Source: Patescibacteria group bacterium
GTDB taxonomy: Bacteria; Patescibacteriota; Microgenomatia; Levybacterales; UBA12049
NCBI GenBank assembly: GCA_038064195.1
Contig: JBBTTO010000003.1
Coordinates: 43,029 to 107,028, forward strand
Direction: 5' to 3'
Length of the DNA: 64,000 bases
Below the pieces are notes generated by a model. The model did not search any database. It saw nothing but the letters and a program-made list of their open reading frames with translations, and had not been told where the DNA came from. Positions 3 through 21,390 of the stretch are shown piece after piece. Numbering within the stretch: position 1 is the first letter of the stretch; each line of letters begins with the position of its first letter. The position numbers and the translations under genes were made by a program.

Positions 3-656
3 AACGAAGCTGATATCGCTATCTGTGACGGGGCAGGCCTCTACCTCGCGGCTAAATACCTCGGGGTCCCTCTTCACGAGCGGATTACCGGGGTTGATCT
101 CATGCAGAAACTCTGCGGTGAAGCAGCAAAAAAGGCTGTCACAGTAGGCTTTCTCGGAGGTCGAGGTAACGTAGCAGAGCGAACCGCCCAGTGCTTACGT
201 GAAAAGTACCCGGGGCTCAAGGTTGTCTTCGTTGCACCGGAGTGGAGTGAGGAAGGATTTGCTGTTGCGGAGCAATTGCGCAGAACTACTCAGAATCCTA
301 CGCGGAAAAACGCAGAGAGAAAGGATCAGCGCCTGCCTGTCGGTAGGCAGGCAGTTCAGCGTGTAGTTCCGCAAAGTTCAGCGCCTGTCATTGACATCTT
401 ATTTGTTGCCTTCGGCTTTCCTAAGCAGGAAGAGTGGATTGCACACAATCTGCCGATCTTACCTGTCAAAGTGGCCATGGGAGTAGGCGGGGCCTTTGAC
501 TATCTCAGCGGTGAGGTCATTCGCGCGCCATTTTTTATTCGTGCCATAGGCTTGGAATGGCTTTTCCGCCTTATCCGTCAACCCTGGAGATGGAGGAGGC
601 AACTAGCTCTCTTGACCTTTGTGAGACAAGTCGTGTCCGCCCGTCTGCGTACATGA
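3..656 (+). CDS. WecB/TagA/CpsF-family glycosyltransferase, 5'-partial (gene starts before the window)
   Basis: The frame is open from the first bases of the window (NEADIAICDGAGLYLAAKYLGVPLHERITGVDL...). The C-terminal half (PILPVKVAMGVGGAFDYLSGEVIRAP..IRAIGLEWLFRL) matches the conserved core of WecB/TagA/CpsF N-acetylmannosaminyltransferase-like enzymes. Confidence 0.65.
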   Translation, partial: NEADIAICDGAGLYLAAKYLGVPLHERITGVDLMQKLCGEAAKKAVTVGFLGGRGNVAERTAQCLREKYPGLKVVFVAPEWSEEGFAVAEQLRRTTQNPTRKNAERKDQRLPVGRQAVQRVVPQSSAPVIDILFVAFGFPKQEEWIAHNLPILPVKVAMGVGGAFDYLSGEVIRAPFFIRAIGLEWLFRLIRQPWRWRRQLALLTFVRQVVSARLRT

Positions 657-4257: not shown

Positions 4258-4719
4258 GTGAAAGAGAGGTTTGTCATGGCTCTCGGATTTGGGCAAAAGC
4301 ACAAAGGGTCGGTCACCCTCCAAATGACCATCCCAAACCGCGAGACACACGATGCTCGCGTCGTCGTGCGGTTCGTGCAGATCAACGGCGTGAATACCTA
4401 TGGCAAGGAGGTCACTTTGGTGATCACCTCGTCAGAAGGGCGTCGGATGTGGTTGCCGGCATCTGTTGGCGATTTCGTCATTGAGAAGCGAGCGACTGCG
4501 ACGCATCTTGTCCCGAAAGGGGCGAAGGCGGAGGTCTATCTGGATGTGATGGGCGATTTCTTTTCGCCAGAGTCCAGATCAGGGACGACTCATGTCACAG
4601 TGCAGGTGCAAGTCGACGGCAAGCTGATCAGCAGCAAGCCGATTCTCGATGTCGTTTTGAGGCGTGATCCTCGGTTTGGCAGCGAGCGGATTGCTCGTGA
4701 GACATTTTCCAGAGCTTGA
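4258..4719 (+). CDS. Hypothetical protein (first ORF of the GC-rich island)
   Basis: 153-aa ORF in a region of clearly higher GC (about 55-60%). No recognisable motif. A likely start is MALGFGQ. Confidence 0.35.
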   Translation: MKERFVMALGFGQKHKGSVTLQMTIPNRETHDARVVVRFVQINGVNTYGKEVTLVITSSEGRRMWLPASVGDFVIEKRATATHLVPKGAKAEVYLDVMGDFFSPESRSGTTHVTVQVQVDGKLISSKPILDVVLRRDPRFGSERIARETFSRA

Positions 4720-5086
4720 ATGAAGGGTAAAGCTAGGAGGCACTAGGGCGACCTGCCCGCAATGCTACACATAGCGTTGCAGGCGGGGAAAGCCAACTGG
4801 TTTGGGATTGTCCGCCTATGGCGAGACGGTCTCAGGGCAGCCGTGCCTCCGGCTTCGCCAAGTCTGACTTGGCTTCGCTTATATCTTTGCACATTAACAC
4901 AACTCATAGGGAGTTATCCCGCTTACAAGCAGGATAGGGTTCTTCATGGAAGTCTCATATGCATGACTCTCCATTGATGAGCACCATAATTTGTTTGTAG
5001 TGGGATCGTCTCTCTGTGAATCTATATGATGGAACTGTCTGCGACAGCCTAGAGGTAAGCATACTTACTTCTCGGGTGTTGCAGGC

Positions 5087-7149: not shown

Positions 7150-7404
7150 CTAATTGGGGAGGACTCCAAGCAGCACGGTAACTTCATCATTAACAACTGA
7201 AAGCATCCCGCGCGTTACATCGTAGGATTTTTTTTCGCCGGGGAGATGGATTTCAACTTTGTTCAGGATAAGGGAGATAAAATGCTCATGTCCTGACAGA
7301 ATATCAAATGATCCTTTCTCATTGCGAGAGGAGACAGCCTCAGCATCTCCGGTAAATAATACGCCGGTTCGATCATGAACAGTAACTTTAAGAAATTGTG
7401 ACAT
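7150..7404 (-). CDS. atpC: F-type ATP synthase epsilon subunit (short form)
   Basis: 84 aa immediately downstream of beta. The N-terminal beta-sandwich pattern (LKVTVHDRTGVLFTGDAEAVSSRNEKGSFDILSGHEHFISLI) resembles epsilon. Confidence 0.7.
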   Translation of the reverse strand: MSQFLKVTVHDRTGVLFTGDAEAVSSRNEKGSFDILSGHEHFISLILNKVEIHLPGEKKSYDVTRGMLSVVNDEVTVLLGVLPN

Positions 7405-7406
7405 AG

Positions 7407-9612
<2,206 letters not shown>

Positions 9613-12128: not shown

Positions 12129-12155
12129 CTTGACATCCAAGCATGGGAATATAAT
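12129..12155 (+). promoter_or_regulatory. Candidate sigma70-like promoter (TTGACA-15nt-TATAAT) for the large surface-protein gene
   Basis: Seen directly. The TTG that opens the ORF-track call at 12130 is the -35 box itself, so the true start must be downstream. Confidence 0.3.
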
Positions 12156-15100
12156 ACTGTACATAGAGGAAGTATTTTCACAGATTCAGGCAATAAATTG
12201 GAGGCTTCATCTGCTCAACCAACAATCTCTTATATCAGGTTTAATCGCTCAGTTGAGAACAACGAGGGGAAAGCTTAGCTTTCTCTTCTTTGGCATGGTT
12301 TTATTTTCCGGCTTGAGTGTCATTGGCGTTAATGCCTTCTTACGGTTTGTTTTTTCTCCTGCCAAGCCTCAAGAATTAAGCTCCGCTACAAGGGGCGGCC
12401 TGGCAGTACTGGCGGCAACTGACGAGCAGCCGGAGTTTATCTTTAATGTGAATGTTCCTGCTTTCTTCAAAGAGAAAAGTGAATTTCAGTCAGATGTTCT
12501 GGTTAAGGGCGGGATGGTCGTGACAGGTGAGACTGTGATGAATGGCAAGATCATCGTTGGGAATGTCATTTATTCATTGACCGCGGGGAGTGGTATTAGT
12601 ATCAGTTCCGGACAGACACCAACTATTGCCAATACAGGGGTCTTATCTCTTCAGGATAAGAGTGGTGATCTTGACTTTACTCAAGGTGACGGAATCACGA
12701 TTGATGGCTTGAAGTTCACTAATGCTGATCGGGGATCGTCACAAAAGATGTTTAAGACCATTACGGTCTCAGGTCAAACAGATATTGTCGCTGCCAATAA
12801 CACGGATACACTGATTTTTGCTGCCGGCAGTGGAGTGACACTCACCACAAACGCGACTACCAAGCAGTTAACCATCGCTGCCTCAGGCGGCAGCAGTCAG
12901 TGGACGACAAGTGGCCTTGACATCTACTACTCCTCAGGTAACGTCGGAATTGGAACTACAAGTCCCACAGAGGCTCTGCACATTGTTGGCAATCTCAAGC
13001 TTAGCGGCACGACGACATTTAATGGGGTAACTTATACGTGGCCCTCAAGCGATGGATCGGGTAACTATGTCCTGTCAACAAATGGTTCAGGCACACTCTC
13101 ATGGGCAAATGTCTCAAGTTTAGTTACTAACTACTGGCAGCTTAGTAGTGGGGCAGTATCTCCTGCCAGCATTACAAACGATCTATTGCTGGGCGGGACA
13201 TCAACTGCTTCGGCGCTGATCAAATTTACTGGTACCTCAGGAGGAAATAGCTTTATTAATACTGCAAATCTTGGAATAGGCAGTACTAATCCGCAAGCAA
13301 AGCTTGATGTCAATGGCAGCATTATCGCAGCCGGAACCATAACTGGCTTGACAGGACTTACCTCCAGTGGAACGATTACTTTTTCAGGTTTTTCAACCAA
13401 TGGTGGGCTGCTCTATACCAATGGCAGTGGTGTAATGGCTCAAGCCGGAGCAGGTACAGGCTCTCAATGTCTTTTGGGAGGTACCACCCCTGCCTGGGGA
13501 TCATGCGGGGTAGACTCACAGTGGACGACAACAGGAAGTGATATTTATTACAATACCGGGAATGTCGGTATCGGCACAACTGCGCCTGTCGGCAAGCTGG
13601 ATGTAGAGGGTAAAGTGACCGGAAAGGCATTAGTCGTCCTTAACGAGACAGGCAACCAGGATATCTTCACAGCCAGTAGCTCAGGAGCTTCTAAATTCTC
13701 AATCACCAATGCCGGTAATATTAATTTCAAATCATCATCTTCATCAATTGGTCAGGGCAATACCATCTATGGATCAGATCTCTCAAGCGGTAATCTCTTC
13801 CTCATCTCTACAACTCATGCTACCAAAGGACGAGTCAATTTCCATGACACCCTTAACTATATAGATAGCACAGGAACTCTTAGCTTACAGGGTGATGCGA
13901 CGTTTAGCGGTGGTAACATCGGTATTGGTACAGGAGCAAATCCGGTTGCTGCTATCAGGTTAAATGGCACCTCAACCTTTGATGTCTATTCGGTAATCGG
14001 TTCGCCGACCTTGACTATCACCAATACGGGGGTTGGACTGAAGCCAACAATTGCTATTGTGGGGAACCTGAGTGTCTCCCAGTATGCCACCGTCAGCGCT
14101 TCCCTGGCTGTCGGGTACTCTTCCGTCCCGGCTGGTACAGGCAATGCCGTCTTCTCCGGCAATGTCGGTATCGGGACGACTCTTACTTCCACATCTCCTT
14201 TGGCAGTTGCCAATTTGCCAACCGGTGGGATCATAACCCTCATGGTTGATGCTGATGGCAATGTCTTTAAGGCAGCCTCGTCTATCCGCTATAAAGACAA
14301 TATTCAACCTTTCTCAACCGATTTCAAAAAGATTCTTTTTGCCTCACCCAAAAAGTATACTTACAAGTCAACCGGGACAGCCGATATCGGTTATTTAGCT
14401 GAGGAGTTTGATCAACTGGGATTGACAGACTTGGTTATCTATGACAAAGACAACAGACCGGATGCGTTAAAGTACGACAAGATCTCCCTTTTTATGCTGG
14501 AGGTGATGAAAGGTCAACAAAACGATATCCAGGCTCTTAAAGCTGCTCTTCCCGGGTTGACGACCACGCAGTCTAGTAGTCAGCTTGATGCGGTTGACGT
14601 GAAGGACTTGGTCGCAACCTCAGTTGCCGGTCTCAGTACAAAAGCCTCAGATCAGGGACCTTCGACAAGTGATGGGCTGAGTGCCTCTCTTGCGACAATC
14701 TCAGGTGAGCTGAGGGTCAAAGGGAATGGCCTCATTGAGGGTATCCTCACTGTCGTTGATACGCTGATTGCTCATAACGTTATCCTGAGCGGAACGGTTA
14801 ACTTCTTCGGTGATACGATCTTTAAAGGCGCAGTTGATTTTTATAAACCGCCCGTCTTTAGTAGAGATACTGCAGGTATGGCTATCATCACCAGGGACGC
14901 GACTGAGGTGGAAGTCGTCTTTGGGACTGAGTATAAGGCTGTGCCAATGATTAATGCGACTATCGATGTCATTAAGCTCACGCGGAATAAGGATGAATCT
15001 GATGACGCGTACGCGAAGCGTCAGGATGACCTGGAGCAGGCCTTATTAAATAGTGACGTACGCTTTATCGTTACACGTAAAACCGTCAAAGGATTTGTCA

Positions 15101-15288
15101 TTCGTTTGAGTAAGCCAGCGTCTGTTGATGTCTCATTTTCCTGGACAGCGCTAGTGGTCAAAGATCAGTTGACAGATGTGCCTAAGCTGGATAACAATGC
15201 CAAGCAGTTCATTCCTGCTCCAACAGTCACTACTCCACCGGGTTTACCTCCTGATCAGTCTTCATCCTCGAGCGCTACTCAGAACTAA
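12130..15288 (+). CDS. Giant cell-surface protein with tail-fibre-like repeats and a C-terminal S74-type intramolecular chaperone domain; probable real start ATG at about 12295 (MVLFSGLSVIGVNAFL signal anchor)
   Basis: Internal repeats SQWTTSGLDIYYSSGNVGIGTTSP..L.V.G recur at about 12895, 13520 and 13900. The C-terminal block SSIRYKDNIQPFS...GYLAEEFDQLGL...PDALKYDKISLFMLEVMKGQQ matches the autoproteolytic chaperone domain of phage tail-spike/endosialidase-type fibres. Confidence 0.65.
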   Translation: MTSKHGNIILYIEEVFSQIQAINWRLHLLNQQSLISGLIAQLRTTRGKLSFLFFGMVLFSGLSVIGVNAFLRFVFSPAKPQELSSATRGGLAVLAATDEQPEFIFNVNVPAFFKEKSEFQSDVLVKGGMVVTGETVMNGKIIVGNVIYSLTAGSGISISSGQTPTIANTGVLSLQDKSGDLDFTQGDGITIDGLKFTNADRGSSQKMFKTITVSGQTDIVAANNTDTLIFAAGSGVTLTTNATTKQLTIAASGGSSQWTTSGLDIYYSSGNVGIGTTSPTEALHIVGNLKLSGTTTFNGVTYTWPSSDGSGNYVLSTNGSGTLSWANVSSLVTNYWQLSSGAVSPASITNDLLLGGTSTASALIKFTGTSGGNSFINTANLGIGSTNPQAKLDVNGSIIAAGTITGLTGLTSSGTITFSGFSTNGGLLYTNGSGVMAQAGAGTGSQCLLGGTTPAWGSCGVDSQWTTTGSDIYYNTGNVGIGTTAPVGKLDVEGKVTGKALVVLNETGNQDIFTASSSGASKFSITNAGNINFKSSSSSIGQGNTIYGSDLSSGNLFLISTTHATKGRVNFHDTLNYIDSTGTLSLQGDATFSGGNIGIGTGANPVAAIRLNGTSTFDVYSVIGSPTLTITNTGVGLKPTIAIVGNLSVSQYATVSASLAVGYSSVPAGTGNAVFSGNVGIGTTLTSTSPLAVANLPTGGIITLMVDADGNVFKAASSIRYKDNIQPFSTDFKKILFASPKKYTYKSTGTADIGYLAEEFDQLGLTDLVIYDKDNRPDALKYDKISLFMLEVMKGQQNDIQALKAALPGLTTTQSSSQLDAVDVKDLVATSVAGLSTKASDQGPSTSDGLSASLATISGELRVKGNGLIEGILTVVDTLIAHNVILSGTVNFFGDTIFKGAVDFYKPPVFSRDTAGMAIITRDATEVEVVFGTEYKAVPMINATIDVIKLTRNKDESDDAYAKRQDDLEQALLNSDVRFIVTRKTVKGFVIRLSKPASVDVSFSWTALVVKDQLTDVPKLDNNAKQFIPAPTVTTPPGLPPDQSSSSSATQN

Positions 15289-15937
15289 GCGGGATTCGTC
15301 TGCCGAATTGATCAACTAGGGTGAAGGAATCAGAGATAGTGCCAGCCTCTTGCGCGGTTTGAACGCTTTGTCTGACCTGCTCTATCACAGGGGTAGTATT
15401 AAAGCGGGCGTCAGAAATTTGGGAGGCTTCCAGGGCGGGAAAAAGCAAGAATACCATTCCCAGTAGATCACCAGACTCTATAGCTAACTGCCCCTGAACC
15501 TCTAAATGGTTTTGATCTGTTATTGCAACTCTTTCAGAAGGCACGACATAGCCAATTCGAAGGGAGGGATTACGAACAAATCTGTCTGAGAGATAGTTGG
15601 CTGTTTTAAGAGCGTCCCTTATCCGATCATGCCCGTCAAATCCGATTCCGGACAGTCTGCCAGTCAATCTGTCAAAAAGAATGGTATCTTGACTACTTGG
15701 GTAGGTTTTATCTTTATTTTCTCCAGCTGGAGTCAATCCATGAGCTAAATCTTCATCAAGACTTGTCAGGCTTCCTCCAACTAGCGCGTGTTGAGGGGTA
15801 AAAAGGCGGAACTCTGTCATATGGTGCCCTTCATGTCGCGTGTTATCTGATCTTAATTTCTCAGTCATTGGGGAATAGTATACCAAAGTCAGAATCGACG
15901 AGGCCGTAGAATGCCCTGGAAGGCCTGTGAGGGACAA
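15275..15937 (-). CDS. Hypothetical protein (convergent with the surface-protein gene, 14-nt overlap)
   Basis: 220-aa ORF. No confident motif. Possible internal start at MTEKLRSD. Confidence 0.35.
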   Translation of the reverse strand: MSLTGLPGHSTASSILTLVYYSPMTEKLRSDNTRHEGHHMTEFRLFTPQHALVGGSLTSLDEDLAHGLTPAGENKDKTYPSSQDTILFDRLTGRLSGIGFDGHDRIRDALKTANYLSDRFVRNPSLRIGYVVPSERVAITDQNHLEVQGQLAIESGDLLGMVFLLFPALEASQISDARFNTTPVIEQVRQSVQTAQEAGTISDSFTLVDQFGRRIPLSSE

Positions 15938-16576
15938 AAGATAGGGGATAGAGAGATCAAAATAGAGAGTACAGCACAGTAAAATGTTATAAGACTTACT
16001 GACAATTACATATTTTCCTATAGTCTGTCATTATGAGTCTAACGGAGAGGGGCTTAGAGTAGGTTCGAAAATTGTGGATATCCACAGGAAAACTTTTTAT
16101 TTCAAAATTTCGTCAAAGATTTTGTCGGATTCCTGGAATTTTAGTGAGTTTTAGGAAAAGTATATTTTACCGGATTTACCAAAACTACAGACTTTTCACG
16201 TCAGTAGATTTTATAAACACAATTTGTGTTCATTCGGGAATTGTTCGATTACGCCGCGTCGGATTGTCTGTGAAGTTATTTTCCGACACGTCGCGTAATG
16301 AAGGACCTGTTTTAGTTGCCGAAAACGACACAAAAAACTATATCAGAGACCATCAAATCGTTTTGTTCACTATGATCTAGTTGCTGAGGTTTTTTTAGTA
16401 GAGAAGGAAGTGCTTTCCAGGGAAGTATTTAGTACCCCAAGGGTATTAGCTATTATATAGCTGCATATTTTGTATCTAGTATTTAGCATAGAGGTCATAA
16501 AAAAAGTATCTAGCAAAAGCAGATATAAATATAAATTCTATACTGTATACCAAATACTTAATACTAGATACTAATT

Positions 16577-16993: not shown

Positions 16994-17554
16994 TTAAGCT
17001 TTCTTCTGAGCGATAGCATTGAGTGTCATAACGAGAGTCTGCATATTCCAAGCAAGTGCGCGGTGAAGGCCTTGGATAGGGGACTTCATCATACCCAGTA
17101 ACTGGGCACGCATCTGCGGTAATGCTGGAAGGGTAGCCAGTAGTAAGACCTGGTCGGAAGAAATTGCTTTTTTATCGAGGATTCCGAATTTAACAGTCGG
17201 GAGACCTAATTCTTTTGAAGTTTTGGCTAAGTTCTTGAGTGGTTCGACGATGTCGCCGTAGATAAAAAGAGTAGCTGTCGGTTGTTCAAAATTTTTCTTG
17301 TCTTCATCACTGAGGTTGTACTCACTGAGCGCTCGGATCATAAGCGTGTTTTTGACTGCGACAAAATCTGCATCCATTTTTTTGGAAGCTTTTTTAAGCG
17401 CTTCCAGCTGATGATGTGTAAGGCCTTGATAATTTACAAAGACAAAAGCATTAGCCTTAGCTACTTTGCTAGATAGTATAGCCAGTAACTCTTCTTTGCG
17501 ACCCTTACCCTGGTGGGGTTTGGGTTGATATTTCATTGATGTTGTCTTAGCCAT
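16994..17554 (-). CDS. rplJ: Ribosomal protein L10
   Basis: L10-like N-terminus (KANAFVFVNYQGLTHHQLEALKKA) and its position immediately upstream of rplL. Confidence 0.9.
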   Translation of the reverse strand: MAKTTSMKYQPKPHQGKGRKEELLAILSSKVAKANAFVFVNYQGLTHHQLEALKKASKKMDADFVAVKNTLMIRALSEYNLSDEDKKNFEQPTATLFIYGDIVEPLKNLAKTSKELGLPTVKFGILDKKAISSDQVLLLATLPALPQMRAQLLGMMKSPIQGLHRALAWNMQTLVMTLNAIAQKKA

Positions 17555-17580
17555 AAAAAATGCACTCCTTAGGAGTGCTT
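17555..17580 (-). promoter_or_regulatory. Hairpin GCACTCC-taa-GGAGTGC plus TTTTTT immediately 5' of the rplJ ATG; the SD (AAGGAG) is inside the 3' arm
   Basis: Seen directly on the minus strand: aaGCACTCCtaaGGAGTGCaTTTTTTatg. It looks like an intrinsic terminator, and it sequesters the ribosome-binding site. Confidence 0.4.
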
Positions 17581-17739
17581 ATAAAGTGGGTAGTAGGTAG
17601 AAGTTAGTGTGTAGTTTTTATTCAACTAAACACTATCTACTAATTTCTATACACTAGTAAAGCCCTCGGCAAGTCTTAGTTGTGTGCTTGCTGTCTTAGG
17701 ACCTGATAATGATATCAGATTGAAAGGGGAGAGTCAAGG

Positions 17740-18534
17740 CTAGGCAGTTTTTTCTTGGATAAGCCCATGTTCAATAAGTTGTTGTCCCATATCAGGTATG
17801 CCTTGCTTATTAGCTGGAATTTTAGGGTTATAGCCAGGAACTGAGTCAATAAGACGGGCTATATTTTCAGGATCGGTTATTCCTTGCTCTCTGAGTGTAT
17901 GTTCTTTGATTATTCTATTGATATCAGCATAGTTATGTTTAATTCCTTCTTCAACTTTTTTCTTCCATGCTTCAGCTTTCTGCAAGTTTGCTTCTCGATT
18001 ATATCCTGGCTCACCCATACCTTCATCAAGAATTAAAGTATATCCAGCAACAACGTAGGCTGCTAAATGTGTTGGGGGGAGAGGATTTTTTACTTTGGTT
18101 AAGAGAGTCTCGATAGCCTCAGGCGTTGCATCGACAAGAACGAACTTTTCCTCAAAATGAAAGTCGCCTTCTTTAGGTTTACTACGAGGAGCAGATATTG
18201 CTCGTTGTTCAAGCTCTGAGGAAGTTAGGCTTAGGTATCCAAATAGACCAAACTCATCGTGGATAAACGTGTGGTCTTTAAATGTTCCAAGGATTCGTAA
18301 TCCTTCTACTTCTCCAGGATTAACTGCGATTTCTTGGAATGTTTCCTCAAGAAATTTTCTTTTTACAGTATCAGTGTCAATTGGCTGGGGCCGACCTTTC
18401 AGGTAAGGGGTTTTACCCGTAGTAGGGTTAGGTGTAAGGGCAATTTGTAATTTTTCTCGGTCAAACATTCCCGCAGCACTTGCTCCCAGAACTTCATCAA
18501 AAATTCGATTACCTGAGCGCATTTGGACAACCAT
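17740..18534 (-). CDS. Hypothetical protein inserted between rplJ and rplA
   Basis: 264-aa ORF with coding-like composition. No motif recognised. It overlaps the upstream ORF by 26 nt in another frame. Confidence 0.45.
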   Translation of the reverse strand: MVVQMRSGNRIFDEVLGASAAGMFDREKLQIALTPNPTTGKTPYLKGRPQPIDTDTVKRKFLEETFQEIAVNPGEVEGLRILGTFKDHTFIHDEFGLFGYLSLTSSELEQRAISAPRSKPKEGDFHFEEKFVLVDATPEAIETLLTKVKNPLPPTHLAAYVVAGYTLILDEGMGEPGYNREANLQKAEAWKKKVEEGIKHNYADINRIIKEHTLREQGITDPENIARLIDSVPGYNPKIPANKQGIPDMGQQLIEHGLIQEKTA

Positions 18535-19060
18535 TTTTGTCTTTAGTGACGAGAATTCCTGCGACAGCCGCTACATTTGTTAAGTCTTGACTTTCTTTGC
18601 TATCGTGAGGATTACTTCCTATTTCATAACTTGGATAGGGAACGTCTTTAACGTCGACCCATAGCGTATTTCCTTCTAGTCTTTGATTCCTGATTCCTAG
18701 TTTGTAAGCCATTTCTTCAGTAAGATTAATATTATTTGCTTCAAGAGCAGCGGTGACAAGTTGCCATTGTCTTTCTGGGTCTTTCTCGTCCTTCATTTCT
18801 TTCGTGAAGAGCTTTTTCCGCTTTAAAACAAATGCAACTTCATCTCGCATACCTGCCTTCAGTGCGACTCGTTGATCATCTGTTAATGGGTATTTATCGA
18901 TGTCTTCGCGCCTACTCATACTGTAGTGAGTATCAACGTCAATACCTTGAGGATTAGATGAAATGAAGTTAATTGTGACAATATCTGTCTCAAATGCTGG
19001 CTGAGGTAATCCTTCGTATTCACGATTTAGAGGTGATGATTCTAATTCAGACATAATCAA
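18509..19060 (-). CDS. Hypothetical protein inserted between rplJ and rplA; possibly the N-terminal part of one frameshifted gene together with 17740..18534
   Basis: 183-aa ORF. Its stop overlaps the start region of the downstream ORF. Confidence 0.45.
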   Translation of the reverse strand: MIMSELESSPLNREYEGLPQPAFETDIVTINFISSNPQGIDVDTHYSMSRREDIDKYPLTDDQRVALKAGMRDEVAFVLKRKKLFTKEMKDEKDPERQWQLVTAALEANNINLTEEMAYKLGIRNQRLEGNTLWVDVKDVPYPSYEIGSNPHDSKESQDLTNVAAVAGILVTKDKNGCPNALR

Positions 19061-19099
19061 ATTGTAGATACTTAGATTAGTGAAGTCAAAGTCAGCTGA

Positions 19100-19969
19100 T
19101 TAAAGCGAAGCGAGGTCTAAATGGATTGCAGGCGACATGGTTGATTTAAGAGTTGCGTTTTTGATCTTTTTCTTATCAATTGCCCCCATAACTGTTTTGA
19201 CATTGGCTTTTATCTTGTCATCACCAAATGAAACTTTTCCAACTGCGATATGAAGAAGCGGGAATTTGGCCTCAGTCTTAAAATTGATCTGACCACCGGC
19301 ATATTTCTCAGCCACTTCTTCAGGCTTTGGAGTGACAGTGCCATTTTTAGGATTTGGCATAAGACCCTTTGGTCCGAGTACTCGAGCAACTTTAGCTAAC
19401 TTCGGCATAGCATCAGGAGTGGCGATCAGGACATCAAAATCGATTGTTCCGGATTCGATTTTCTTGATCAGTTCATCAATTTCTTTTTGATCAGCCCCAT
19501 TAGCGATAGTGACCCGAGTCTCCTTGCCTGTGCCATGGGGGAGGCTCACAGTGCCTGAGACACCTGTCTCGGTAGTCGTCAAATGGATCTCGACAGTTTC
19601 ATCAAATTTAGCTCTTTTGAGTTGAGGAAGAAGAGCTACAGCTTCAGTAAGTGGATAGTTTTTCATTTTATCGACAAGTTCGGCTTTCTCTTTATAACTC
19701 TTTGAGCGGGTAACCTGAGCAGCCTTTTTAAATTTATCTTTTTTTCGTCCAGAGGACGATCGGCCTTTGGCCGAGGCTTCTTTTGTTTCTTCAGTAGGTT
19801 GAGCGACAACTACTTCATCACTTGAACCACTCTCAGCTTGCTTTTCGGCCTTCTTAGCCCGCTTCGACTCGTTCTCAGCGAGGCGAGCTTCTTTACGAGC
19901 TTTAGCATCATCAGCTTGCTGACGCTCTAACTCTTCATCTCCGACTGCTTTGACTCTGATTTTTCCCAT
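19100..19969 (-). CDS. rplA: Ribosomal protein L1 with an about 85-aa Lys/Glu-rich N-terminal extension
   Basis: The core from ...KSYKEKAELVDKMKNYPLTEAVALLPQL aligns with L1 (HGTG, FDVLIATPDAM, GPKGLMPNPKNGTVT). The ATG at 19969 is preceded by the same 92-nt leader as rplK. Confidence 0.85.
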   Translation of the reverse strand: MGKIRVKAVGDEELERQQADDAKARKEARLAENESKRAKKAEKQAESGSSDEVVVAQPTEETKEASAKGRSSSGRKKDKFKKAAQVTRSKSYKEKAELVDKMKNYPLTEAVALLPQLKRAKFDETVEIHLTTTETGVSGTVSLPHGTGKETRVTIANGADQKEIDELIKKIESGTIDFDVLIATPDAMPKLAKVARVLGPKGLMPNPKNGTVTPKPEEVAEKYAGGQINFKTEAKFPLLHIAVGKVSFGDDKIKANVKTVMGAIDKKKIKNATLKSTMSPAIHLDLASL

Positions 19970-20061
19970 ACCTTGATTGAATGATTTTCACTGATTATGA
20001 ACTGATTCTCACGGATATTTAAATATCTGTGTTAATCCGTTTTAGATCTGTGTAAATCTAT
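19970..20061 (-). repeat. 92-nt leader/promoter repeat, copy upstream of rplA
   Basis: Near-identical (1 mismatch) to 20481-20572. It contains the palindrome gatatttaaatatc and ends ...aatcaaggtATG. Confidence 0.6.
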
Positions 20062-20480
20062 CCAGACACCTCCACACCCATGCTGCGTGCAGCACCCGCG
20101 ACAATACGACTGGCCATCTCGACATCAGTTGTATTAAGATCTTCCATTTTGTCTTTAGCAATCTGTTCAGCTTGAGCCTTAGTGATCGAGCCTGCCGGTT
20201 CTTTGCCCGGTTTTTGTGAGCCGCCGCGACCGAGGGCTTTTTTGATCATTTCAGCCACGGGTGGCTTCTTGGTGATAAAGGAGAACGTACGATCTTCATA
20301 GACAGTGATGACAACAGGCAGGATATTGCCTTTTTGATCGGCTGTTTTGTCATTAAACGCCTTCACAAACTCCATGATAGGCAGTCCATGCTGACCCAGT
20401 GCCGGTCCGACAGGTGGTGCGGGAGTAGCACTTCCAGCGGGGATATTCAATTTAATTAATGTTTTTATCTTTTTAGCCAT
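20058..20480 (-). CDS. rplK: Ribosomal protein L11
   Basis: [32 protein letters not shown]... is the canonical L11 N-terminus. Confidence 0.95.
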
Positions 20481-20572
20481 ACCTTGATTGAATGATTTTC
20501 ACTGATTATGAACTGATTCTCACTGATATTTAAATATCTGTGTTAATCCGTTTTAGATCTGTGTAAATCTAT
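20481..20572 (-). repeat. 92-nt leader/promoter repeat, copy upstream of rplK
   Basis: Same sequence as 19970-20061. Confidence 0.6.
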
Positions 20573-20574
20573 TC

Positions 20575-21171
20575 TTAAATTTTCTGAACTTGTAAAAAAT
20601 CTAATTCAACTGGTGTTTCTCTTCCGAAAATACTGACCAGGACGCGTAGTTTACCACGAGTCTCATCTATGTTGTCAATAGTTCCTAAGAAGTCAGCAAA
20701 CGGTCCGTCAATAATTTTGACCGCCTCACCCATAACAAAGGCTGTTTTGTAGAGAGGCTCTTCCTGCGTCATGAACTGTTGGATAGCCTCAACTTCTTTC
20801 TCAGAAATCGGTGTCGGCTTGTTCCCGGCTCCGATAAAGGCTGTAACGCCTTGCGTCGTGCGCACCAAAAGCCACGATTCATCATCTAAGATCATTTTGA
20901 CGAGGACGTAGCCCGGGAAAATTTTCTCACTGACTTCTTCTTTTTTGCCGCCCTGGACTTTGATCGTCTGGCGGGTAGGGACGATAATATCAAAAATGCG
21001 TGTCTCAAAACCCATGGTCTCAACGCGCTGTTTGAGATTGCGAGCTACTTTATTTTCATGTCCGGCATACGTATGCACGATGTACCACTTAGCATCACTT
21101 GATGTTGCGGCCTCTTTAATTTGCTCCTCAGATGGTCCTGTTTTTTGTGGTGTAGTTATTTCGTCTGTCAT
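20575..21171 (-). CDS. nusG: Transcription termination/antitermination factor NusG
   Basis: NGN domain (KWYIVHTYAGHENKVARNL) and KOW motif (GEAVKIIDGPFADFLGTI). Confidence 0.9.
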   Translation of the reverse strand: MTDEITTPQKTGPSEEQIKEAATSSDAKWYIVHTYAGHENKVARNLKQRVETMGFETRIFDIIVPTRQTIKVQGGKKEEVSEKIFPGYVLVKMILDDESWLLVRTTQGVTAFIGAGNKPTPISEKEVEAIQQFMTQEEPLYKTAFVMGEAVKIIDGPFADFLGTIDNIDETRGKLRVLVSIFGRETPVELDFLQVQKI

Positions 21172-21207: not shown

Positions 21208-21390
21208 TTATTTAATTAAAACCTCTGTTAATTTAGTTAGAATAAAGTCAATTCCTCCTATATAAAGTCCGACGACGACGCTGATAAAAATGACGATAAA
21301 GGTCAAACGTACAAGCTGTTCGCGTGTCGGCCAGACCACTTTTTTCAGTTCATCAAATGTTTGCTGGATGAAAGCGACTGGAGTTGTCAT
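21208..21390 (-). CDS. secE: Preprotein translocase subunit SecE
   Basis: 60 aa (FDELKKVVWPTREQLVRLTFIVIFISVVVGLYIGGIDFIL) directly upstream of nusG. Confidence 0.8.
   Translation of the reverse strand: MTTPVAFIQQTFDELKKVVWPTREQLVRLTFIVIFISVVVGLYIGGIDFILTKLTEVLIK

Follow-up and report, generated by a model that had tools for sequence, protein, structure and literature searches.

We find that two overlapping open reading frames (ORFs) located between the ribosomal protein genes rplA and rplJ of a Patescibacteria group bacterium are the two halves of a single ancestral gene of approximately 440 codons. They lie on the minus strand of a 64-kb stretch (64,000 nucleotides of contig JBBTTO010000003.1, assembly GCA_038064195.1), which we refer to as the window and whose numbering is used throughout. 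The gene has been interrupted by a genuine 2-nucleotide (nt) deletion, its product has the predicted fold of a Nudix protein resembling human NUDT22, and its location is conserved within the lineage; in these points taken together we have very high confidence. The two "hypothetical proteins" of the public record, AAB478_03860 and AAB478_03855, are thus one split gene that now has an assignment at the level of fold.

One gene and a genuine deletion

The N-terminal fragment is encoded at 18509-19054, giving 181 amino acids (aa) from ATG 19054, which is the start used by NCBI (AAB478_03860); read from a TTG it would span 18509-19060 and comprise 183 aa. The C-terminal fragment (17740-18534) has 264 aa from ATG 18534, or 260 aa from the alternative start ATG 18522, which corresponds to NCBI AAB478_03855. 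The two ORFs share 26 nt (18509-18534), with the C-terminal one read in the +1 frame with respect to the N-terminal one. A first-pass annotation of this DNA had likewise noted an overlap of 26 nt in different frames, and had proposed either two genes or one gene of about 440 aa that would need a programmed or an erroneous frameshift.

A conceptual fusion of both ORFs, searched against 5.8 billion protein clusters, gave four matches. P0001 is an uninterrupted protein of 441 aa with 73% identity at 100% coverage, and P0002 is likewise uninterrupted, with 454 aa and 65% identity; the other two were the window's own C-terminal half (AAB478_03855, from the metagenome-assembled genome (MAG) named Patescibacteria group bacterium) and P0004, a 263-aa C-terminal half from another organism. 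The gene for P0001 is found between rplA and rplJ as in the window (loci L001 and L002), and so is the gene for P0002, but there within an insert of seven genes (L003). The N-terminal fragment aligns with residues 1-176 of P0001 at 67% identity, and the C-terminal fragment is 77% identical to residues 176-440. The alignment with orthologous loci that had been proposed as a check hence shows a conserved insert with a single uninterrupted ORF in the relatives encoding P0001 and P0002, rather than two separate ORFs with their own ribosome-binding sites and a known function, and the one-gene version of the earlier proposal is borne out.

The NCBI annotation as two hypothetical proteins is what would be expected if two separate, unrelated genes happened to overlap. 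However, in well over 100 homologues the two halves are joined in a single polypeptide, the predicted domain that is cut is interrupted within one of its β-hairpins, and the last seven residues of the first ORF (GCPNALR) are out-of-frame sequence, which is why we give two unrelated genes practically no credence.

Comparison of the junction with L001 and L003 places the 2-nt deletion at 18532-18533 on the minus strand. Where the relatives read ...ACC AAA GAT AAT AAG CTG GTT GTC CAG ATG CGC..., the window reads ...ACT AAA GAC AAA AAT G-- GTT GTC CAA ATG CGC... (junction sequence GACAAAAATGGTTG, within 18480-18580). The deletion affects the codon that corresponds to Leu178 in the intact orthologue and shifts the reading frame by +1, and it is the deletion itself that generates the ATG (18534-18532) opening the second ORF.

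This deletion is genuine and fixed in the population. The same junction is present in L006, L007, L008 and L009, which are independently assembled contigs from ERR3858127, ERZ1292623, SRR32696697 and SRR32696699 with an overall identity of 99.97-100%, and also in L035, from an error-prone long-read assembly; P0155, a strain variant with one amino-acid difference, shares the truncated end. The junction is thus identical in the window and six other assemblies, representing at least five runs and two technologies, which, as far as assemblies can tell, rules out a sequencing error. It is true that clearly erroneous frameshifted copies of the family exist in low-coverage or long-read assemblies (L025 at 1.2x coverage; L033, L034 and L035 with many broken essential genes), and the erroneous frameshift considered in the first-pass annotation would mean that the true gene is intact, with 440 codons. 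In addition to the shared junction, however, the lesion consists in the loss of 2 nt rather than in a change in homopolymer length, and no intact protein at ~100% identity is found among the 5.8 billion clusters. The probability of a sequencing or assembly error is accordingly negligible.

The other form of frameshift that had been considered is a programmed one, in which tRNA-Lys would slip by +1 within GAC-AAA-AAU-G, moving from AAA onto the AAA that overlaps it, and thereby give a full-length product (...VTKDK-MVVQMRSGN...). The run of five A residues permits such re-pairing, the product would be collinear with the intact orthologues and only one residue shorter, and the arrangement resembles prfB-type +1 frameshifting in that the +1 frame is used by the downstream ORF and AAA-A would allow the tRNA to re-pair. 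AAA-AAU, on which the Lys-tRNA can re-pair in this way, is a common sequence. Unlike prfB-type sites, this one has neither an in-frame stop nor a rare codon: the A-site codon AAU is neither slow nor a stop, the stop being 8 codons downstream. There is furthermore no GGAGG-like Shine-Dalgarno (SD) stimulator upstream, the local RNA structure is ordinary (folding z = -0.51), and the site is not conserved, as the sequence of L001 and L003 differs here and stays in frame, and the window has lost 2 nt relative to it. A second split lineage described below (L004, L005, L031) has a TAA nonsense codon, which cannot be bypassed by a frameshift, and a run of five A residues is too short for efficient transcriptional slippage. 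Taken together, these observations make programmed frameshifting very unlikely.

Predicted fold and proposed activity

The family to which the gene belongs comprises 168 representative clusters (50% identity) at E <= 0.001, 71 of them at E <= 1e-30, in an exhaustive profile search. AlphaFold2 (AF2) with a 90-sequence alignment gave a model with a predicted local distance difference test score (pLDDT) of 93.1 and a predicted template modeling score (pTM) of 0.91, where a 5-sequence alignment gave only pLDDT 48. A Foldseek search with this model retrieved NUDT22 at E 1e-9. The predicted model has the α/β/α sandwich of the Nudix fold, and its two-domain architecture, an N-terminal domain followed by the Nudix domain, can be superimposed on that of NUDT22. 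On the basis of this modeled fold, we assign the gene product to the NUDT22-like Nudix proteins with two domains.

The ORFs had initially been described as lacking recognizable motifs, which does not hold, since the region of the junction, together with the second ORF, contains a degenerate Nudix signature (..AAVAGxLVTKDxKLVVQMRSGN..GASAAG..D ... EExxQEIAV) that is plainer in the family consensus (QHR..N..Y.D.PGASAAG..D ... KExxEELGL). Most family members have KExxEELGL as the Nudix helix, and the window's clade has EExxQEIAV (EETFQEIAV in the window); E241 and E245 are invariant. The Nudix box is interrupted by ~28 residues, so that its Gx5E part stands apart from the REUXEE helix, and PF00293, which describes the canonical box GX5EX7REUXEEXGU, has no match at E <= 1 in the window ORFs, P0001 or P0002. 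The canonical Nudix hydrolases covered by PF00293, such as the ADP-ribose pyrophosphatases, NudF and RppH, have a REUXEEXGU helix where the window's clade has EExxQEIAV. Scans of both ORFs and the intact orthologues with Pfam, NCBIfam, PADLOC and PHROGs gave nothing significant, and an origin from a defense system or a phage is therefore unsupported.

In the AF2 model the Nudix domain opens with a hairpin formed by the strands 165-172 (AAVAGALV) and 177-183 (KLVVQMR), and the deletion in the window falls in the turn or at the start of the second of these. The N-terminal fragment would consequently consist of the N-terminal domain plus the first β-strand of the Nudix domain, and the C-terminal fragment of the remainder of this domain, including the degenerate helix EETFQEIAV, followed by a C-terminal helical region.

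Human NUDT22 acts as a hydrolase of UDP-glucose and UDP-galactose, turning UDP-glucose into UMP and glucose-1-phosphate, and it is an outlier of the human Nudix family without a conventional Nudix box (PMC10101856, PMC5688067, PMC12847042). Hydrolysis of UDP-glucose and UDP-galactose is known for the human enzyme only (PMC10101856), and in our literature searches no paper connected NUDT22 to Patescibacteria. Because of the analogy to NUDT22 we infer, and as regards the substrate entirely so, that the enzyme would be a nucleoside-diphosphate-sugar (NDP-sugar) pyrophosphohydrolase, splitting NDP-sugar into nucleoside monophosphate (NMP) and sugar-1-phosphate, which plausibly serves nucleotide and sugar salvage. 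Such an activity is also in line with the recurrent fusion or adjacency to a HAD-IIB phosphatase of the sugar-phosphate type described below. The bacterial protein is only ~15% identical to human NUDT22 (PDB 5lor, 5lou, 5lf9) and differs from it by an extra helical insertion (~residues 59-117) and a C-terminal helical region of ~110 residues; it is furthermore often fused to HAD-IIB and occurs in bacteria of the Candidate Phyla Radiation (CPR). Two observations weigh against the proposed activity. In the window's clade, Gln replaces the first Glu of the "EE" pair, and a 90-member family profile run against all PDB sequences at E <= 10 detects no sequence-level similarity to NUDT22. The only matches of this profile were HAD phosphatases, by way of the fused domain, among them the trehalose-6-phosphate phosphatase 5dxl (E 6e-7), which is matched through the extension. 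The family, with ~170 sequence clusters in Patescibacteria and neither a Pfam nor an NCBIfam model, would represent the bacterial structural counterpart of human NUDT22 and is frequently fused to a phosphatase of the sugar-phosphate type.

The association with HAD-IIB is recurrent. Members of at least 640 aa make up 46 of 149 representatives, 37 of these 46 have the HAD motif DxDG, and six out of ten long members tested match Pfam Hydrolase_3 (HAD-IIB) at the C- or N-terminus. Among the 18 loci found in GTDB representative genomes, HAD is fused or adjacent in 14. In L003 and L004 the HAD gene overlaps the 3′-end of the Nudix gene, and the 318-aa neighbor in L003, the HAD partner at 7340-8296, gives a weak trehalose-phosphatase/HAD signal in scans. 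The recurrent fusion suggests a two-step reaction, in which NDP-sugar is converted to NMP and sugar-phosphate, and the latter to sugar and phosphate. A similar arrangement is found in fusions of a synthase or hydrolase with a HAD-IIB phosphatase, such as trehalose-6-phosphate synthase/phosphatase, where HAD-IIB, which in our family is most similar to trehalose-6-phosphate phosphatase, is likewise fused to or located beside the enzyme that would produce a sugar-phosphate; here, however, the partner is a Nudix-fold hydrolase and not a glycosyltransferase, and the loci of the window and L001 are without a HAD gene. A distant member of the family, in L033 (a contig from SRR33375171), is a Nudix-HAD fusion in a polysaccharide-biosynthesis neighborhood, located between a Wzm/Wzt-type ABC transporter with glycosyltransferases and a gene for an NDP-sugar epimerase/dehydratase. 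The gene is frameshifted near residue 120 in this contig, and the neighborhood is compatible with an NDP-sugar substrate. As CPR bacteria are thought to depend on nucleotide salvage, a module that would turn NDP-sugar into NMP (and sugar) and is linked stably to ribosomal-protein operons is a concrete salvage candidate.

A recurrent cut: a possible two-piece enzyme or young pseudogene

The gene has been split a second time. In L004, L005 and L031, three assemblies that are mutually 99.97-99.99% identical, the codon of Gln181 is TAA, directly followed by the ATG of Met182, and this stop lies near the end of the second strand of the hairpin. L003, the closest relative of the L004 lineage with ~86% nucleotide identity, is intact, and so is L001, the closest relative of the window. 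The two intact sisters show that the splits are separate events, and they are of different mutational type. The lesions are three to four codons apart in a gene of 440 codons, with an ATG at the cut in both cases, and the chance of a second lesion falling so near the first is ~2%. This recurrence of a cut at one hairpin, together with a restart codon, is the only unusual element.

Further lesions were found in neither split lineage. As the window and its relatives have diverged to saturation at synonymous sites, which makes the ratio of nonsynonymous to synonymous substitution rates (dN/dS) unusable, we turned to branch-specific amino-acid counts. Lineage-specific changes in the N- and C-terminal halves number 16 and 22 in the window compared with 20 and 21 in the intact L001, and 19 and 3 in L004 compared with 19 and 13 in the intact L003. 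Out of 55 family-conserved residues the window keeps 45 and L001 keeps 47, and the proportion of nonsynonymous differences (pN) is far below that of synonymous differences (pS) in both halves.

A promoter-like site, TTGACT-17-TACAAT, was found by a consensus scan at 19061-19089 (minus strand), ending 6 nt before ATG 19054. The layout TTGACx-17-TAnnAT-6..8-ATG is retained in seven out of nine orthologous loci, although the spacer sequences have diverged, and this conserved geometry suggests that the split gene has its own promoter and gives rise to a leaderless mRNA. In the window as a whole, an SD-like motif precedes only 7 of 40 genes, which indicates that SD-less initiation is normal in this genome, and in many genes a TATAAT-like box lies 6-9 nt ahead of the start codon, which suggests from the DNA sequence that leaderless or very short-leader mRNAs are widespread.

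We propose that the gene's own promoter could yield a leaderless transcript and that the N-terminal fragment, comprising the N-terminal domain and Nudix strand β-1, would be translated from the 5′-terminal AUG. For the C-terminal fragment, from strand β-2 onward, translation would start at the junction ATG (18534 or 18522), either through re-initiation or independently of an SD sequence. Both pieces would then reassemble non-covalently, because the cut is in the turn of the Nudix domain's first β-hairpin, and split proteins can reassemble when cut at a site of this kind. In our judgment the chances that the two predicted pieces are still functional together are even. The more comprehensive proposal is that the locus holds a natural two-piece Nudix NDP-sugar hydrolase with a selectively tolerated cut site, and that a CPR-specific nucleotide/sugar salvage unit, with or without HAD, has been kept in the L11/L10 cluster as a leaderless unit across 30-37% identity; this we put forward tentatively, as something that may well be so but for which we would not claim an even chance.

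Several observations speak against a functional two-piece enzyme. For termination-reinitiation, a backward overlap of 26 nt is long, and neither of the junction ATGs (18534 and 18522) is preceded by an SD sequence. A frameshift or nonsense lesion is most simply explained as inactivation. The stop in L004 takes the place of Gln181, a residue conserved at 94% across the family, and no HAD partner was found in the 64-kb window (tblastn with two HAD partner queries, best E 1.2), although L001 has no HAD beside its intact gene either. Finally, the assemblies within each split lineage are 99.97-100% identical, that is, essentially clonal. The splits may therefore be very recent, and the lack of decay is weak evidence.

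The main alternative is a young pseudogene, where the deletion would have inactivated an accessory Nudix gene and left undecayed remnants, and where the split in L004 would be coincidental or reflect general gene loss in a small clade. In support of this, two of the four known lineages of the clade have a disabling lesion, the gene is accessory and patchy, with only 18 loci among the GTDB representative genomes, and the HAD partner is missing from the window. L004 has furthermore, in addition to losing Gln181, changed conserved residues in the N-terminal half (R125S and D137N), and with each split lineage clonal, absent decay says little. On the other hand, the two independent lesions, of different type, fall within four codons, and both leave an ATG exactly at the junction. 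Neither an extra lesion nor an excess of amino-acid changes over the intact sisters is seen, the split allele is present in samples from several projects, and CPR genomes are compact and rarely retain dead genes. We regard a young pseudogene as a serious candidate, though one to which we assign somewhat less than an even chance.

Naturally split genes are also found in symbionts with reduced genomes. Nanoarchaeum equitans has split genes for reverse gyrase and alanyl-tRNA synthetase, and here too a tiny-genome, probably host-dependent organism has an enzyme gene cut into two ORFs whose products could reassemble. In contrast to the Nanoarchaeum cases, the halves here are adjacent and overlapping, and the cut is inside the hairpin of a domain and not between domains. 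The finding changes no major paradigm, but a recurrent split at one hairpin provides a natural test case for how well a gene tolerates fission.

More distant splits were considered and none was found solid. L025 (protein P0135) has a frameshift ~10 codons downstream, in a MAG with 1.2x coverage; the frameshift in L033 is the one near residue 120 mentioned above; and L034 and L035 belong to error-riddled long-read assemblies. In L010 (734-1300 of a 1330-nt contig from ERZ4903055), the distant P0136 ends in ...VTKDNRLV, followed by two stops and then unrelated sequence. This end is at the same hairpin position as the two splits, but we do not consider it solid because the contig ends 30 nt later and may be chimeric.

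The site between rplA and rplJ

The genes of this region are all on the minus strand, in the order secE (21208-21390), nusG (20575-21171), rplK, rplA, the two fragments, rplJ and rplL. The order from rplK to rplL is the one given in the first-pass annotation, and both the ORF list and Pfam matches for L1, L10 and L12 agree with it. The upstream flank of the cluster is rplK (L11; 20058-20480), whose orthologues in the relatives match PF03946/PF00298 and are 75-91% identical to it by tblastn. It is followed by rplA (L1; 19100-19969, 289 aa), matching PF00687 (E 2e-34) over residues 118-280. The L1 N-terminus (19790-19969) is a K/E-rich extension of ~60-110 residues before the Pfam L1 domain, and a similar N-terminal extension is seen in the L1 proteins of relatives (263-279 aa). 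The ~1.36 kb between rplA and the promoter and leader of rplJ (17740-19099) hold the promoter-like site and the split gene. Downstream of these are rplJ (L10; 16994-17554; PF00466, E 5e-18) and rplL (L7/L12; 16577-16975; PF00542 and PF16320).

The gene is found between rplA and rplJ in L001, L003, L004 and L011/L013, the L011/L013 copy (P0005) being a Nudix-HAD fusion that is 36-38% identical. Out of the 18 GTDB loci, five (L013, L014, L016, L019 and L024) have it at this site, although the L019 contig ends before rplJ. Several of these loci are labeled Levyibacteriota, nusG is 91-94% identical to that of the window in the four loci with nusG on the contig, and the lineage of the window is probably Levyibacteriota. 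The copies at the site are only ~30-37% identical across genomes, and by these comparisons of gene order and sequence the site is an old, lineage-typical home of the Nudix (± HAD) module with variable extra cargo. The insertion between rplA and the rplJ leader is thus real, as had been noted, but is conserved in the lineage and not unique to this genome.

It is correct that rplA is not directly followed by the rplJ leader, but the arrangement is less exceptional than had been supposed, as the insert is at a boundary between units and genes between rplKA and rplJL have been reported in Bradyrhizobium diazoefficiens and Actinomyces israelii (PMC12993453). In these interrupted clusters, too, foreign genes are found between rplA and rplJ at the boundary between transcription units, and the L10 leader stays with rplJ. 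What differs is the gene content, since here a specific Nudix (± HAD) module is conserved at the site. Mycobacteria are a further case in which the rplKA/rplJL clusters are interrupted.

In L003 (3459-11401) and L004 (2403-10394) there are seven genes between rplA and rplJ, encoding proteins of 389, 176, 211, 454 (Nudix), 318 (HAD-like), 565 and 343 aa. Apart from the Nudix and HAD-like genes, the island consists of five non-enzyme genes without a match in Pfam, NCBIfam, PADLOC or PHROGs. Several of the island proteins look secreted or membrane-anchored, with low-complexity P/T/S-rich linkers, and no att-like flanking repeats were found around the island in L003.

Right after the stop codon of the insert, the consensus scan found a further promoter-like site, TTGACT-17-TATCAT with an upstream TG (17709-17737, minus strand). 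It is nearly identical in L001 and is likely the rplJ promoter. The L10 leader is located directly upstream of rplJ, as in the canonical cluster (17547-17718, minus strand; full-length match to RF00557 with 31.5 bits and E 0.031, which is below the gathering score of 44). It includes an attenuator-like hairpin, GCACTCC-TAA-GGAGTGC, with a T-run just before the rplJ start, and a leader motif, CCUAAGACAG..CCGAGG, that is conserved in L001 and L003. From these sequence features, the insert appears to occupy the boundary of the rplKA and rplJL units and to leave the autoregulatory leader of L10 intact.

A direct repeat of ~100 nt, with copies 97% identical, precedes rplK and rplA (20471-20572 and 19960-20061, minus strand) and ends at the ATG of each gene, and a promoter-like TTTAAA-18-CATAAT is present in both copies. 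In L001 the arrangement recurs with another sequence (4396-4491 and 4928-5024, copies 80% identical), so the rplK/rplA leader looks to have been duplicated and kept similar within each genome. The repeat may be a duplicated L11-operon leader or L1-binding site.

Beyond rplL there is an AT-rich spacer of 639 bp (15938-16576), in which a tRNA scan and Rfam gave no match, and then an ORF of 220 aa (15275-15937, minus strand) without a match in Pfam, PADLOC or PHROGs and without homologues in related loci; the hypothetical minus-strand gene after a spacer of about 640 bp described earlier is therefore confirmed. The ORF is convergent with a plus-strand gene (12130-15288) for a repeat-rich, probably surface-exposed protein of 1052 aa, which is the largest ORF of the window. 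No ORF of the size of rpoB or rpoC was found in the 64 kb. The absence of rpoBC after rplL, likewise pointed out in the first-pass annotation, is also seen in L001, L003, L011, L014, L016 and L024, which have unrelated genes there, and is a trait of the lineage that is not peculiar to this genome. In the place of rpoBC the relatives have very large proteins with Peptidase_S74 or CBM96 matches.

The spacer also contains a conserved non-coding block (window ~16015-16133, minus strand; L001 8796-8918; L014 9767-9871; L013 6825-6876). It holds a perfect palindrome, TGTGGATATCCACA, made up of two inverted DnaA-box-like 9-mers, and ~35 nt downstream of this a -10-like CTyATAATG and an invariant GACAGACTATAGG. 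The block has no Rfam or tRNA match, and the window shows no enrichment of DnaA-box-like 9-mers; the block may represent a conserved operator/promoter or the start of an unannotated small RNA.

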